Shown: positions 1,102 to 63,734, numbered from the stretch's first letter. The stretch is DNA of 64,000 bases from an uncultured virus (IMG/VR IMGVR_UViG_3300007542_000024) (IMGVR_UViG_3300007542_000024), one strand, 5' to 3'. The notes: generated by a model from the sequence alone, not told the origin. Numbers and translations: made by a program.

Positions 1102-1537
1102 GGGGGTCGTCCTCCAGCGCGGAAGGGTAGAGGTAAGCGACCACGCGTGGTCCTTGTGAGTAGGCTTCCCGCTTATGCAGGAGAACGTCGAAGTTATTCC
1201 GGTCGCTCAGGCCCACCAGCTTGGCGATGCAGTCCTCTACCAGCTTGATGAGGTTGGACACGTCGACGTTCTTGTAGGGGTGCTTGGTCTTCGCCTTCAC
1301 GCCCCAGGAGAGGTTGTAGAGGTCTTCGGGGGCGATGTAGAACCAGACCTCGAGGGTGTAGGCCTGCTCCCGCTCTACTCGGATAGCGAGGAAGTCCTTG
1401 GTGGACATCCCTCCTTGGGCGGCGAGGAAGGCCTGCCTCCAGTTCCTACCTGCCGTGGTGAGGATCTTGCGTCCCCGGGCCACGGTGTAGAGCTTGTTGA
1501 CGGACACGGGGAGGGCGGGGAACTGGAAGCAGTACAT
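1079..1537 (-). CDS. rusA: RusA-family Holliday junction resolvase
   Basis: P-x-S-V-N-x-x-Y N-terminus and DVSNLIKLVED...LSDRN, matching the RusA D-x-D/S-N-x-x-K-x-x-x-D pattern. Confidence 0.75.
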   Translation of the reverse strand: MYCFQFPALPVSVNKLYTVARGRKILTTAGRNWRQAFLAAQGGMSTKDFLAIRVEREQAYTLEVWFYIAPEDLYNLSWGVKAKTKHPYKNVDVSNLIKLVEDCIAKLVGLSDRNNFDVLLHKREAYSQGPRVVAYLYPSALEDDPHEAGAAG

Positions 1538-2160
1538 CAGCGGGGCCTACGCCAGCGCTGGGGGTTGACGACCGGCGCGGTGCGCTCCTGCCGATCCTGG
1601 TTCTCGACGTCCTGGGCCTTCCTGGTCTGCTCACGGGAGATGAGGTTGAGGGAGCGCTTCATCTGCTCGAACCGCTCCTGCGTCTTGCGCATGTAGACCT
1701 CCATGCGCAGCAGGCCAGCGTCGGCGGAGACGAAGCGCTCATCCATGTCGATCTTGGCGTCCAGCATGGCCGCTGCGATGCCGCAGTCCTCCTTGTAGTA
1801 GATCTTCAGCGCACTCTGAAGCACCCGGACAGTTCGGGACTGGACCAGGTGCATGGCCTTGGAGCGCATGTACTCGGCGGACAGGTAGTTGGTCCAGCCG
1901 CTGGCGTAGCCGAAGAGCTTGCCCAGTGTGACCAGGTCGAGCTCGGTGACGTCGGCGGGCACGATGGGGTCCCCGTTCTCAGCGAACTCGATGTGGCCCT
2001 CGAGGCCAGTCGGGAGCGCGGGGATGGGGAGCCTGTCGCTGATCGCACGTTCGGCCAAGCTGCGGTCGACATCGTCGATGATGTTGTCGTAGATGTCGAT
2101 GAGCTCGTCGATGCGGACGTTGCTCGGGACGGGGAACGCGGCACCGCCTGTGTGGGACAT
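1537..2160 (-). CDS. Hypothetical helical protein (207 aa)
   Basis: Start moved to ATG 2160, which overlaps the upstream stop as TGATG; also TGATG-coupled to rusA. Confidence 0.7.
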   Translation of the reverse strand: MSHTGGAAFPVPSNVRIDELIDIYDNIIDDVDRSLAERAISDRLPIPALPTGLEGHIEFAENGDPIVPADVTELDLVTLGKLFGYASGWTNYLSAEYMRSKAMHLVQSRTVRVLQSALKIYYKEDCGIAAAMLDAKIDMDERFVSADAGLLRMEVYMRKTQERFEQMKRSLNLISREQTRKAQDVENQDRQERTAPVVNPQRWRRPR

Positions 2161-3479
2161 CAGAACCTCCTCTGCCGCTTGTACGCAGCGGGCTTGCAGG
2201 TCCACATGTAGGGGCACTCCCCGCACTTGGACTTGATGTCGATCTGCGGGGGGAGCAGGCCCTGTTGGACCGTCTTGATGATGTGGGCGCAGCGGGTGGC
2301 TGTCTTCTTCCAGGACACCCGGTTGTGCGGCGTCACGAACTGCTTCATGACGCCCTCTTCCTTGTTGACGTAGAGGTAGAGGACGCGCTCCAAGCCGAGC
2401 AAGGCGCAGTAGATGTTGGCCTGGTCAACATGCTCGCGCTTCGCCTTGGTGAACTTCTTGTAGCTGCTGCCCCCCGCACTCTTGATCTCGTAGCCGAGCA
2501 CGTCTTCCTGCCCGTCACAGTGCCCGGTGATCTTGAGTTGCTCGTGCTGGACACGCACTTCCTCCTGGAAGGCGTCTCCCTTGGCGATGGCCAGGGCCAT
2601 CTGCACGATGTCGTGGAGCGCGTGCCCGGCGTTGAAGATGCGGCGCAGGTGCGACGAGATCTGCCCCATCTGACGGATGCCCATGAGGCCATAGGCGATG
2701 CGGCGGTCGCAGGGCGTCATGGAGAGCTCGGACGGATGGATGCAGTGCGTAGCCCGCCCCGAGTCCTTGAAGTTCAGGCTGAACAGGTACCTGTCGAGCT
2801 CGATGATGATGTCGGTGGTGGGCACCGCCCGGATGCCGTTGCTCGGCCAAGGGTCGGGAGGGCCGAAGCGGTCTGCATCACACTTGGTGGCGTAGGGGCA
2901 GGCCGCGCAGTCGTTGTCGGACGCTGTCCCGCCGGGGAAGCCCTCACCGCGCCAGAGGCTCGCCAGGTAGGCAGGTACCTTCGCCACAGCTTTCCCGGCC
3001 TCGTCGATGTCCGTGAGCGTCCAGGCTGACCACTTCTGCGTGTTGCGGTCCACCAGGATGACGATGACTGCCTCCGCGCCGAGCATGTGGGCGCGGGCCG
3101 CTGCGATGAGCTTGGAGCGCGCAGGGAACTGGGGGAACACCCGGGTGGACTCGTGGGAGAGCATCACGGGAAGTCCGTCGAGGTAGCCCAGGTGCTGTAC
3201 TTGTACCCCGGAGTACAGCGTAGGAGCTGCGCGAGAGAAGCGGGTGGGGAAGCACGCGGCCAGGTAGCGCTGCACGTGCTCCCCGAACTTGTACTCGTAG
3301 AGCCGCAGCAGGACCTTGGCGGGATCCTCGAGGCGGTCGGGTTCTTCCCCGATGAGCTGTAGGTAGAGGCGCCAGCTGCACGGCGTCTTGACGACGTCAG
3401 CGACCTCTACCTCTTGGGGGTAGCTGCCGATGCGGCTCAGCACCTGCTCAACGGCTGCTACTGCGTCCACTGTCTGCAT
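2160..3479 (-). CDS. Cas4-like PD-(D/E)XK exonuclease, apparently two tandem domains
   Basis: C-terminal half: HPSELSMTPCDRR, GHALH, ITGHCDG, YEIKS, QANIY, CGECPYMWTC; N-terminal half keeps TPCSWR and CAACPYATKC. Confidence 0.75.
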   Translation of the reverse strand: MQTVDAVAAVEQVLSRIGSYPQEVEVADVVKTPCSWRLYLQLIGEEPDRLEDPAKVLLRLYEYKFGEHVQRYLAACFPTRFSRAAPTLYSGVQVQHLGYLDGLPVMLSHESTRVFPQFPARSKLIAAARAHMLGAEAVIVILVDRNTQKWSAWTLTDIDEAGKAVAKVPAYLASLWRGEGFPGGTASDNDCAACPYATKCDADRFGPPDPWPSNGIRAVPTTDIIIELDRYLFSLNFKDSGRATHCIHPSELSMTPCDRRIAYGLMGIRQMGQISSHLRRIFNAGHALHDIVQMALAIAKGDAFQEEVRVQHEQLKITGHCDGQEDVLGYEIKSAGGSSYKKFTKAKREHVDQANIYCALLGLERVLYLYVNKEEGVMKQFVTPHNRVSWKKTATRCAHIIKTVQQGLLPPQIDIKSKCGECPYMWTCKPAAYKRQRRF

Positions 3480-4059
3480 GGAATCTCCTGAAGGCGGCTT
3501 CCGACATGACCACGGCCCGAGGTTCCAAGGGGATCTCCAAGGGCTCGGGGTAGTCGCGTCGTGCGAAGGTCACACCCCCGCGGGTGAGCGGGAGGGCCCC
3601 GCGGTCGGGTAGGTGCCCCTCCAAAGCTGCAGCTCGGGCGAGGACGATGGTGATGTGGGGGTGCTGGGTGAACACGACACGCAGGAGGGGTTCCTCGCCG
3701 GCGGCGAGGGCTCCTTGGACGAAGTCAGTCCAGGTGGAGCCCTTCAGCCGGTAGCGGTCGCTGCGAGTACTCTTGTTCTCGACGCGCCACGCGCCGAGCG
3801 TCCGGACGTCGCCGTCCATGTTCTCGGCGCCAGAGCGCAGGGTCTCTCGGCCTCCAACCAGGGCGGCAGCTCCCTTCTCGGTAGAGCGCCAGGCCTGCTT
3901 CTTGAGGTGCTTGGGTTGTGCCCGCTTCTTGCGTGGGCAGTCGTCGGCGTGGTCGATCCCGTCCAGGATGTTGGCGGTCCTGTTCTTCAGGACGCGCTTG
4001 ACCCGGACGGGTCCCTCGCGGCCGCACAGTAGGCAGCGGCTCTGGCGCCAGTCGCTCAT
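3448..4059 (-). CDS. Hjc-like PD-(D/E)XK endonuclease with N-terminal Zn-binding motif
   Basis: E-x4-A...GG...SGA...GDV...VENKST typical of phage resolvase-like nucleases; CLLC...HADDC at the N-terminus. Confidence 0.6.
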
Positions 4060-62731: not shown

Positions 62732-62743
62732 CGGGGGAGAGTC

Positions 62744-63703
62744 CTACTCGATGGGCAGCGACTCACGGGCGGGTTCGGGCTTCTCGATGTCGTCCGGCGT
62801 GTCCGTGCCCTTCACGGGCTCCGGGGGCGGATACCCCGCGGCGACGAAGAGCTGGGTCACCAGGTCGGTGTCGCGGCCGGCTTCCCACTCACGCTGCAGG
62901 ATGGTGATGATGTCCTCGAGCTTGGTCTCGGCGAGGTCCGCGCGCTTGGTGAGCGCGACGTACTGCGCCGCGAGCCACTCCAGCCCGTCGAAGACCGGCT
63001 CGAAGACGGAGAAGTCCTCGGGCGAGGCCAGGTGGTTGGTCAGCCCGATCACGACGGCCTTGGCCTTGTCGGTGAACTCCAGGTGGTTGTAGTCCAGGAA
63101 GAAGGGGTGGGTGTGCAGACCTTCCACGACGCGGATGATCGTGGTGGCGAGGATGTGCTTGGGGCGCATGGAGACCTCTCGAGCGGGAGTGCGTTCACGG
63201 GCAGAAGCCCCGTGGGCGGTGGGTGTGGGGTTCAGGCGAAGTGCGCGGTCCAGCGCACGGTAGGTGGAGTGCGGGCAGTACTTGGCGATGGTGCGCTCGA
63301 GGGACATGCGAAGCTGGTCGCTGTTGAGCAGCACGGGCGAATCTTCGACGTAGGGGACGGTCACCTGCAGGATGGCGTTCTGGAACGCCTCGTGGAAGTG
63401 GCTGCGCGGGCTGTTGGCGAAGTAGGGCCAGAGCCCGGCGAGGGTCACAGCGGCGGCGCGCGGATCCTGCAGCTTGCGGCGGGTAGCGAGCACGGTGGAT
63501 GCCCGCGCAGTGCGCATCCAGCGCCAGAACTCCCGAACAGCAGGAGGGGAGTGCATCTCGCCCAGGGCATACTCGACGCGCGCGTCGTAGAGGGACTTGT
63601 GCATGGACTCTCCAGGGCCGAGCGACGGGTGCACGTTCGACGGTGGGGGCACGGGCAGACGGAAGGCCTGCCCCGTAGCCTCGAGGGAAGGAATGGTGGA
63701 CAT
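62744..63703 (-). CDS. Hypothetical protein
   Basis: 319 aa; GAGGT RBS at both the annotated start and an internal start (63169). Confidence 0.65.
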   Translation of the reverse strand: MSTIPSLEATGQAFRLPVPPPSNVHPSLGPGESMHKSLYDARVEYALGEMHSPPAVREFWRWMRTARASTVLATRRKLQDPRAAAVTLAGLWPYFANSPRSHFHEAFQNAILQVTVPYVEDSPVLLNSDQLRMSLERTIAKYCPHSTYRALDRALRLNPTPTAHGASARERTPAREVSMRPKHILATTIIRVVEGLHTHPFFLDYNHLEFTDKAKAVVIGLTNHLASPEDFSVFEPVFDGLEWLAAQYVALTKRADLAETKLEDIITILQREWEAGRDTDLVTQLFVAAGYPPPEPVKGTDTPDDIEKPEPARESLPIE

Positions 63704-63720
63704 GTGTACCTCTCACCTAC

Positions 63721-63734
63721 CTTATGCGTGAAAG
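63721..63734 (-). promoter_or_regulatory. TTTC-N4-ATAAG motif
   Basis: CTTTCACGCATAAG, intergenic; differs from the 62677 copy at one base. Confidence 0.7.

Follow-up and report, generated by a model that had tools for sequence, protein, structure and literature searches.

A strand-specific ATAAG word as the probable core of a sigma70-family promoter class in phages with a fused beta-beta' RNA polymerase

Sigma factors encoded by phages are known to redirect the core RNA polymerase (RNAP) of the host. In T4, whose late genes carry TATAAATA and depend on gp55, and in SPO1, which uses gp28 and gp33-34, a phage factor of the sigma family gives one class of genes a private promoter word, and these factors work with the host core enzyme. 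N4, with its vRNAP, and phiKZ and AR9, with a virion multisubunit RNAP, carry in the particle a polymerase that reads early promoters; these enzymes are single-subunit, or split and highly diverged, and have no canonical sigma. A further lineage, termed mReC, consists of Caudovirales that encode a bacterial-type RNAP (Weinheimer and Aylward 2020, PMC7481178). The word "promoter" occurs 0 times in the main text of the paper that defined this lineage (PMC7481178) and of that on the Salmonella phage Arash (PMC10585845), and full-text literature searches on the lineage together with RNA polymerase returned nothing on its promoters. Here we describe a candidate promoter word, ATAAG, in a 64,000-nucleotide stretch of DNA (the window) from an uncultured virus (IMG/VR IMGVR_UViG_3300007542_000024) that encodes such a polymerase. 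The window spans positions 41433-105432 of a viral contig that is 110,689 bp long and has an estimated completeness of 65%; the two differ at 61 positions. Coordinates are window positions unless marked as contig, and a copy of ATAAG on the minus strand reads CTTAT on the plus strand.

We propose that ATAAG is the -10-like core of a lineage-specific promoter of the sigma70 family, which would serve non-structural genes and would be used by a phage sigma factor, most likely together with the phage's own polymerase; we put the probability of this reading at about 0.7. Its parts are not equally firm. That the sites are promoters of a phage-specific class is very likely, that they are read through the phage sigma is probable, and for the core enzyme we lean, with less assurance, towards the phage polymerase.

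An exact search places CTTAT at 1172, 9901, 16440, 20810, 36853, 58689, 61249, 62677 and 63721 (P1 to P9 in this order) and finds 0 copies of ATAAG on the plus strand of the window, so that all nine copies share one orientation, as a preliminary reading made from the DNA by itself (the sequence-only reading) had reported. The same reading had noted a C five bases before ATAAG in all nine copies and TC in seven, and both counts hold, the exceptions for TC being 36853 (GC) and 61249 (AC). The whole contig has 10 minus-strand copies, the tenth lying 283 bases beyond the window end, and one plus-strand copy (contig 35637), which lacks any flanking feature and scores low on every flank. Around the minus-strand copies other elements recur. 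Counted from the A of ATAAG, T-G or T-A stands at +10/+11 in eight of the ten (background 0.074; P=3.5e-8); the base before ATAA is C in seven, G in two and T in one, preceded mostly by C-G; six copies run on as TAAGG; and a -10-like hexamer with the conserved A at its second position is present in all ten.

To score the region upstream, we derived a matrix from 90 sites, all of them in distant relatives; its upstream part is G-[A/C]-A-A at -23 to -20. By this upstream part taken alone, the contig copies exceed random positions (Mann-Whitney p=0.001), and the A-rich box reaches about the 90th percentile or higher in seven of the ten minus-strand copies; in the wider lineage the box is clear, with an information content of up to 1.3 bits at -23 to -20 from the core A. 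For a second matrix we used 21 sites from three relatives, all intergenic and co-oriented. When both strands of the entire contig are ranked by it, the ten minus-strand copies all fall among the 12 best positions, and it yields no further convincing intergenic site on the contig that might be a degenerate member of the set. A look-alike containing TATGAT before the gene for a 365-aa protein received no score with the relatives-trained matrix and was discarded. Taken together, these elements lead us to revise the earlier statement that the motif does not resemble a sigma70 pair: a -10-like [C/T]ATAAG, in most copies an A-rich -35-like box about 17 bp away, and a pyrimidine-purine step where transcription would start are visible. 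The motif departs from the housekeeping consensus at the last base of the hexamer, which is an invariant G, found in every copy, and not T; the -35-like box, in addition, is A-rich and not TTGACA.

The placement of the copies relative to genes is equally distinctive. Genes were called with our own simple self-trained codon-usage scorer and annotated by Pfam and PHROGs, and these calls confirm the placement originally described, with six copies intergenic (16440, 20810, 36853, 58689, 62677 and 63721) and one on a stop codon (61249); two, at 1172 and 9901, lie within genes. Non-coding DNA makes up 4.5% of the contig, yet it contains 9 of the 11 ATAAG copies, and all nine are co-oriented with the next gene, none being anti-oriented. 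The probability of at least nine co-oriented non-coding copies, with about 1.4 expected, is 1.6e-5, and ATAAG ranks 1 among the 160 pentamers with four A/T and one G/C in co-oriented non-coding DNA, where CTAAG and GTAAG each occur 2 times and TTAAG 0 times. Start codons that have their own GGAG-type Shine-Dalgarno sequence follow 22-200 nt downstream of the cores. Some gaps left by the caller, of 288-549 nt (61475-62023, 33342-33709, 41825-42144 and 50675-50962), look like coding sequence; since they probably represent missed or mis-started genes, the true non-coding fraction is below 4.5%.

The genes behind the sites form a recognizable class. Rightward genes encode the large terminase, the major head protein, the tail sheath, baseplate hub and wedge proteins, a 2036-aa RNA polymerase and a sigma-like protein of 241 aa, while leftward genes encode RecA, a family-A DNA polymerase, a DnaG-type primase (Pfam), a DnaB-type helicase, uracil-DNA glycosylase, a Cas4-like nuclease, a resolvase, a further helicase, a helix-turn-helix protein and many small open reading frames (ORFs) without matches. 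No ATAAG precedes the virion genes on the rightward strand, nor the genes for polymerase and sigma. Gene annotation and upstream regions alike bear out that the word goes with replication genes and small early-type genes rather than with those of the virion. The copy inside the primase gene (P2) had been said to use rare codons, and this is so: its reading frame is ATA-AGG, with ATA accounting for 12 of 1390 Ile codons, and a rare ATT (41 of 1390 Ile codons) stands beside the core and a rare AAA (16 of 1455 Lys codons) at the upstream box. Because the rare codons fall exactly there, the primase coding sequence seems to have been bent to keep both boxes. The 396-aa gene downstream of this copy had been labelled as single-stranded DNA-binding protein (SSB), but searches of Pfam, PHROGs and PDB sequences lend this label no support.

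Conservation in related phages provides a further line of evidence. We fetched 72 polymerase loci by way of an alignment of 20 homologues and could place the polymerase start in 67. In 61 of these 67 loci an ATAAG is found on the strand opposite the polymerase gene, no more than 200 nt upstream of it, and in none is it on the polymerase strand; nine control pentamers occur at the same place in 2-15 of the 67. The profile of the relatives' sites consists of the A-rich box, G at -3, G/T at -2, T/C at -1, ATAAG and two purines, followed by T at +10 in 40 and G at +11 in 37 of 53 sites; the invariance of ATAAG itself in the 53 and the 90 sites is by construction, because ATAAG was the search word, and it is the 61 of 67 loci, set against the control pentamers, that count as independent evidence. 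An extended pattern matches the 67 loci 117 times on the strand opposite the polymerase and 31 times on the polymerase strand, compared with 39 and 20 for reversed controls, and several of the polymerase-strand matches are codons of a conserved G-D-K in the polymerase. Three relatives that could be read whole or nearly so have minus to plus counts of 10:1 (104.7 kb), 14:6 (76.5 kb) and 16:2 (a complete genome of 174.7 kb, with terminal repeats), and most of the minus copies in these genomes are intergenic, 8-128 nt from the next start codon. When four genomes are pooled, ATAAG is found in 23 of 72 upstream regions of minus-strand genes versus 2 of 73 of plus-strand genes (Fisher 1.5e-6).

The flanks of the core vary within the lineage. 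Its wider form is GG[T/C]ATAAG, while in this phage and those closest to it (polymerase 55-62% identical) CGC precedes ATAAG, with TTC or TTYC slightly farther upstream; the complete 174.7-kb relative has T-CGC-ATAAG without TTC. The window motif, (T)TTC-N-CGC-ATAAG, thus appears as a subclade variant. A strict TC-N4-ATAAG-N5-TR gave 8 matches in the whole records of five relatives versus 5 for the reversed control, so the TC-N4 spacing does not hold for the lineage as a whole; in the three genomes closest to this one, C at -5 shows only moderate conservation (0.5 bit). Phages of 44-68% GC retain the motif, some of Salmonella and of Vibrio among them. Salmonella phage Arash, with a polymerase 33.5% identical over 71% of the query, has six intergenic GGT-ATAAG sites before leftward genes in the 28.5 kb around its polymerase genes, and in Vibrio phage D69 (about 30% identical) a region of 31 kb contains six sites of the form GTT/GCT-ATAAG, likewise ahead of leftward genes, four of which share the same downstream sequence. 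The complete 174.7-kb relative (G006) also shows CGC-ATAAG sites at contig 136304 (-) and 136341 (+), 37 nt apart and facing away from each other, the A-rich box of each lying in the flank of the other; the plus copy is one of only two in that genome, and the pair could possibly be back-to-back promoters.

Candidate readers of the motif are encoded by the same contig. The fused beta-beta' RNAP is a single chain of 2036 aa (20848..26958, +), in which Pfam recognizes Rpb2_6 and Rpb1 domains 1, 2, 4 and 5. It has 1275 homologues; the 120 matches listed are 1762-2907 aa long, most of them about 2050, and many are on contigs of 100-200 kb. Across the alignment of 20 homologues, residues A1369-D1374 of the catalytic motif ADFDGD are invariant and N1368 is nearly so. 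The 241-aa protein of the sigma70 family is encoded rightward (+) at contig 13219-13944 and was missed by the sequence-only reading because this gene lies outside the window. Its assignment comes from PHROG (sigma family, 1.9e-10), NCBIfam, a PDB profile match to RpoS (8.8e-11, profile positions 59-233, covering regions 2 to 4) and an AlphaFold model (mean predicted local distance difference test score 82.6), for which the top Foldseek matches listed are all sigma chains of initiation complexes. It misses all curated cut-offs for sigma subfamilies in NCBIfam: the best match there is to SigB/F/G (1.4e-8, 34.7 bits versus a cut-off of 234), and against the FliA/WhiG model TIGR02479 it reaches E=0.0032 and 17.2 bits versus 189.6, so that it is not a member of that family. 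A homologue of the sigma was found in each of the five relatives tested, three of which are complete genomes, and sigma and polymerase homologues are recorded on contigs of identical sizes (190,291, 129,542 and 80,108 bp). The sigma Gp10 of Arash is its orthologue (28% identity over 95%).

We did not find a second sigma gene on this contig, estimated to hold 65% of the genome. Two relatives are annotated with one, Salmonella phage Arash at 2516-3553 (+) and Vibrio phage D69 at 1867-2643 (-). The D69 gene is part of a leftward cluster and has ATAAG 97 nt upstream, which hints at a sigma cascade.

In the mechanism that we propose, the signal would consist of (T)TTC, one base, CGC and ATAAG, and the T-G or T-A step five bases on would be the transcription start. 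Most copies would also have, in the place of a -35 box, an A-rich G-N-A-A-A/T some 20 bases ahead of the core. The profile of the relatives' sites has the geometry of a sigma70-family promoter: if transcription starts at the purine after T, [T/C]ATAAG would fall at -12 to -7 and the A-rich box near -32. Such signals would head leftward units, namely the replication and recombination cluster, a small acidic gene, an island among late genes and small early-type genes, and in the run of small genes GC-rich hairpins would close a unit about 20 bases before the next promoter. The 241-aa sigma would read the signal, most likely together with the fused beta-beta' polymerase. What the sequences themselves establish is the motif, where it lies, how far relatives keep it, and that genes for sigma and polymerase exist and are conserved; both the start at these sites and the enzyme responsible are what we infer. 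The reader would be a phage-specific sigma of group-3-like character. The motif shares the ATAA register and the AA spacing of the sigma28 promoter and, as there, is without the T; the sigma itself falls outside FliA/WhiG.

The main alternative concerns the core enzyme. A phage sigma might redirect the host core RNAP to the ATAAG promoters and leave others, for example those of late genes, to the fused polymerase. We consider this unlikely, while acknowledging that the phage sigma is a standard protein of the sigma70 family with regions 2-4, that ATAAG is lacking ahead of the polymerase and sigma genes themselves, and that we found no second promoter motif of rightward genes that could be assigned to the host enzyme. 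What speaks for the phage polymerase is that sigma and fused polymerase co-occur through the lineage (the 5 of 5 relatives and the shared contigs) and that beta, beta' and the orthologous sigma are abundant in Arash particles, which fits a preformed phage holoenzyme; in the mass spectrometry of purified particles reported in the text of PMC10585845, the polymerase beta subunit Gp206 was the most-detected protein with 3516 spectra, and beta' Gp216 gave 1210 and sigma Gp10 467. The sequence-only reading had assigned the motif to the fused RNAP as a promoter of early and replication genes. Placement, co-orientation, flanks, rare codons and conservation uphold the promoter, and the gene class stands as well; the fused polymerase, for its part, is not distinguished by these data from a host core carrying the phage sigma.

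Alternatively, the early genes could have ordinary host promoters, either of the housekeeping extended -10 type or of the flagellar sigma28 type. This we regard as very unlikely. [C/T]ATAAG does agree with TATAAT at 4-5 of 6 bases, and the ATAA core and upstream AA are spaced as in the sigma28 promoter, given as (-15)GCCGATAA(-8) and (-36)TCTAAAG(-30) in the part of PMC12784957 that describes it. According to the same part of that text, housekeeping sigma needs T at -7, which is essential for sigma70, while group-3 sigmas do not flip the -7 base (PMC12784957); the final G of the phage word is invariant. The base before ATAA is mostly C (7 of 10) and not the G of sigma28 sites, the motif persists over the whole range of phage GC content given above, Salmonella and Vibrio phages included, and matches to the housekeeping consensus are at chance level in the window. 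Even less credible is that the word marks no promoter at all and is a by-product of composition or codon bias, a ribosome-binding or stop context (TAAGG), or the operator of a regulator. The count below the shuffle expectation, the general depletion of TAA words in genes (both detailed below) and the TAAGG continuation in 6 of 10 copies would suit such an origin. The start codons are 22-200 nt away with their own GGAG-type sites, the conserved part is CATAAG and not the rRNA-pairing GGAGG, and the NTG after the core opens no conserved ORFs; strict orientation, two boxes and a position conserved lineage-wide are, moreover, unexpected from composition. On these grounds we rejected a Shine-Dalgarno or stop-codon reading, the real starts lying farther downstream behind their own sites, as well as leaderless mRNA, for which the NTG four bases after the core is no conserved start and its ORFs are 8-9 aa long here and in several relatives. 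We read this NTG as the start-site step.

Several points nevertheless weigh against a promoter read by the phage's own enzyme. A count of ATAAG on both strands against expectation, which the sequence-only reading had proposed as a check, gives no overall excess in the window: there are 9 copies versus 15.55 +/- 3.67 in dinucleotide-preserving shuffles, 99 of 100 of which have at least 9. Within genes, 2 sense copies compare with 15.2-15.7 expected under synonymous shuffling, but all pentamers containing TAA or TAG are strongly depleted in coding DNA (CTAAG 0 vs 37.4; GTAAG 3 vs 31; TAAGC 1 vs 28.3; GCTAA 2 vs 34.9). The emptiness of genes and of the other strand is therefore partly non-specific, and we rejected avoidance of ATAAG inside genes as a sign of function. 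Equal abundance of the word on both strands or within genes had been named as a result that would speak against a promoter; the contig has 10 minus copies to 1 plus, with 2 of 11 in genes, but the depletion in genes is unspecific. Across the whole contig, out-of-frame TAA and TAG words are nearly absent from genes, a strong general codon-pair bias. The T-G/A step is missing from both intragenic copies (P1 and P2), the -35-like box is weak in 3 of 10 copies (P4, P8 and P9), and the exact TC-N4 spacing is not general among relatives. The 67 loci include near-duplicates, the 61 that bear ATAAG representing 53 distinct contexts, and the gene positions rest on the simple codon-usage caller. Transcription starts were deduced from sequence alone, the virion proteome comes from a distant relative (Arash, at the polymerase identity given above) whose authors allow for carry-over, and the evidence fits a phage core and a host core polymerase alike.

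A more speculative extension of the proposal is that the fused polymerase is packaged in the virion with its own sigma and injected, so that the ATAAG promoters would constitute a first, host-independent programme and the enzyme would be the first sigma-dependent virion RNA polymerase. We advance this tentatively, and rather doubt it; it is a serious possibility because of the Arash particle proteins, the orthology of Gp10, and the location of the polymerase and sigma genes on the virion strand without ATAAG. The Arash authors themselves propose a role in early transcription, or a carry-over of abundant proteins (PMC10585845, in its main text). Given that both genes lack ATAAG and are among virion genes, polymerase and sigma would, under packaging, be made late for the next round, and the TTC-N-CGC extension would be a subclade-specific retuning of the upstream contacts of the sigma. 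The stop codon of the polymerase gene overlaps the start of a baseplate-hub (gp5-like) gene at 26955-26958, and because of this overlap the polymerase is probably co-transcribed with virion genes.

The individual sites, all on the minus strand, differ in how complete they are. P3 (16433..16468, core 16440-16444) lies between divergent genes and heads the leftward replication cluster, with a Shine-Dalgarno sequence and a TTG (16396) 48 nt downstream; the first gene of the cluster probably starts at this TTG (strong AGGAGG; 153 aa) and not at the called ATG (103 aa). Each of the seven subclade relatives has a site in the same context, 4.0-5.6 kb ahead of its polymerase gene. P4 (20803..20838, core 20810-20814), separated by 34 nt from the start codon of the oppositely oriented polymerase gene, is the top match of the matrix trained only on relatives, and P3 and P4 are both conserved by position in all seven subclade relatives. 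Behind P4, the ATAAG site most widely conserved of all, and divergent from the polymerase gene is a small, very acidic ORF (20642..20770, -; 42 aa from GTG 20770). The first ORF preceded by a Shine-Dalgarno sequence at the equivalent place has an aspartate plus glutamate content of at least 25% in 31 of 52 distinct relatives (median length 43 aa), and these acidic ORFs often share a hydrophobic-acidic stretch of the type F-E-E-x-I-D-x-x-I-x-G. The product might mimic DNA or inhibit some host protein.

P1 (1165..1200, core 1172-1176) falls within the gene for a 152-aa protein; the 149-aa gene (652-1101) has its ATG 75 nt farther downstream. The site has TTC, a -35-like score at the 98.8th percentile, a core supplied by a rare CAT codon and a homologous in-gene counterpart in one relative (G001); it has no T-G/A step and is the weakest site of the set. 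P2 (9894..9929, core 9901-9905), inside the primase gene and 200 nt before the ATG of the 396-aa gene (8515-9705), reaches the 99.9th percentile, with the rare codons AAA, ATA, AGG and ATT exactly at the two boxes. P5 (36846..36881, core 36853-36857) precedes a leftward gene of 144 aa that forms an island among rightward late genes; its -35-like score is at the 100th percentile, it has a T-G step, and the ATG is 53 nt downstream. P7 (61242..61277, core 61249-61253) overlaps the stop codon of a 74-aa gene and has a T-G step and a -35-like score at the 92.6th percentile.

Hairpins accompany the remaining sites. P6 (58682..58717, core 58689-58693) lies in a 144-nt intergenic region before the 365-aa gene, and between it and the start codon is a perfect 19-bp GC-rich hairpin followed by a short T run (58613..58656, -). 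None of 200 shuffles (0/200) folds equally well, and the hairpin may act as an attenuator or form the 3' end of a transcript only about 85 nt long. P8 (62670..62705, core 62677-62681) has TTTC and CGC flanks, a T-A step and a weak -35-like box, and the ATG of a 66-aa gene follows 44 nt downstream; P9 (63714..63749, core 63721-63725) has TTTC and CGC flanks and a T-G step, and here a 319-aa gene has its ATG 22 nt downstream. Perfect GC-rich hairpins of at least 13-14 bp precede P8, P9 and the copy just outside the window; all three end 20-22 nt before the core and have no U tract. That of P8 (14 bp, 62703..62734, -) ends 21 nt and that of P9 (13 bp, 63746..63775, -) 20 nt upstream of the core; both are terminator-like without a U tract, and the latter has z = -4.9, with 0 of 200 shuffles folding equally well. 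We read the hairpins upstream of P8, P9 and the copy outside the window as putative boundaries of transcription units. Intrinsic terminators with U tracts are at chance level in scans of the window.

Searches for other signals gave little. Simple word enrichment upstream of rightward genes produced nothing clear that could be a second, late promoter motif. Matches to the housekeeping consensus (TTGACA/TATAAT/TG) number 5 in 60 kb of the window versus about 3.5 expected. Just two housekeeping matches are intergenic and directed towards a gene, both with TTGACG as first hexamer: TTGACG-17-TAGAGT (12199-12227, -), before the DnaB-type helicase gene, and TTGACG-18-TACACT (37634-37663, +), before a gene at 37673. 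The window has no tRNAs, and megablast of 20 kb against a phage collection returned no near-identical phage records.

Phages with a bacterial-type RNA polymerase are widespread in metagenomes, as the 1275 homologues of the fused enzyme indicate, and a conserved promoter word would sort their genomes into gene classes and predict start sites. Its presence in phages of Salmonella and Vibrio that are in culture opens it to laboratory tests. Together, the promoter, the sigma and the single-chain polymerase would make a compact, possibly host-independent set that could serve as an orthogonal expression system.

Among the promoters of bacteria, a close parallel to the ATAAG sites is that of sigma28 (FliA/WhiG, group 3). 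Both have two boxes, in the phage at most of the copies, ATAA at -11 to -8 (for the phage sites, if the start is the T-G step), a GC-rich stretch just upstream of the core and an AA pair at the same distance as in TCTAAAG, and the best curated matches of the phage sigma are to group-3 families. The two differ in that the phage sites have an invariant G after ATAA, which is not conserved in sigma28 sites, and in that sigma28 has G before ATAA with CC ahead, whereas the phage mostly has C and the wider lineage G-G-T; the phage sigma, moreover, fails the FliA/WhiG model (17 bits versus 189.6). With extended -10 and other two-box promoters of bacteria the sites share a TATAAT-like hexamer with the key A in second place, conserved bases just upstream of it, in most copies a -35-like box at a spacing of about 17 bp, and a pyrimidine-purine step 5-6 nt downstream. 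Unlike those promoters, the phage hexamer ends in G and not T, the box is A-rich and not TTGACA, and the extension is TTC-N-CGC in the subclade or GG in the wider lineage instead of TG.

The comparison with phage systems is similarly mixed. Unlike T4 and SPO1, this lineage also encodes a fused beta-beta' polymerase, and its private promoter would mark non-structural and not late genes. As in N4, phiKZ and AR9, the polymerase gene is among late or virion genes, the presumed promoters stand before early-type genes, and the polymerase of the relative Arash is abundant in particles; unlike the enzymes of those phages, that of this phage is of bacterial type and comes with a sigma70-family factor and a two-box promoter. 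The phage resembles the mReC lineage by genes and motif: it is a large tailed phage with beta and beta' bearing ADFDGD, together with terminase, major head, sheath and baseplate genes.

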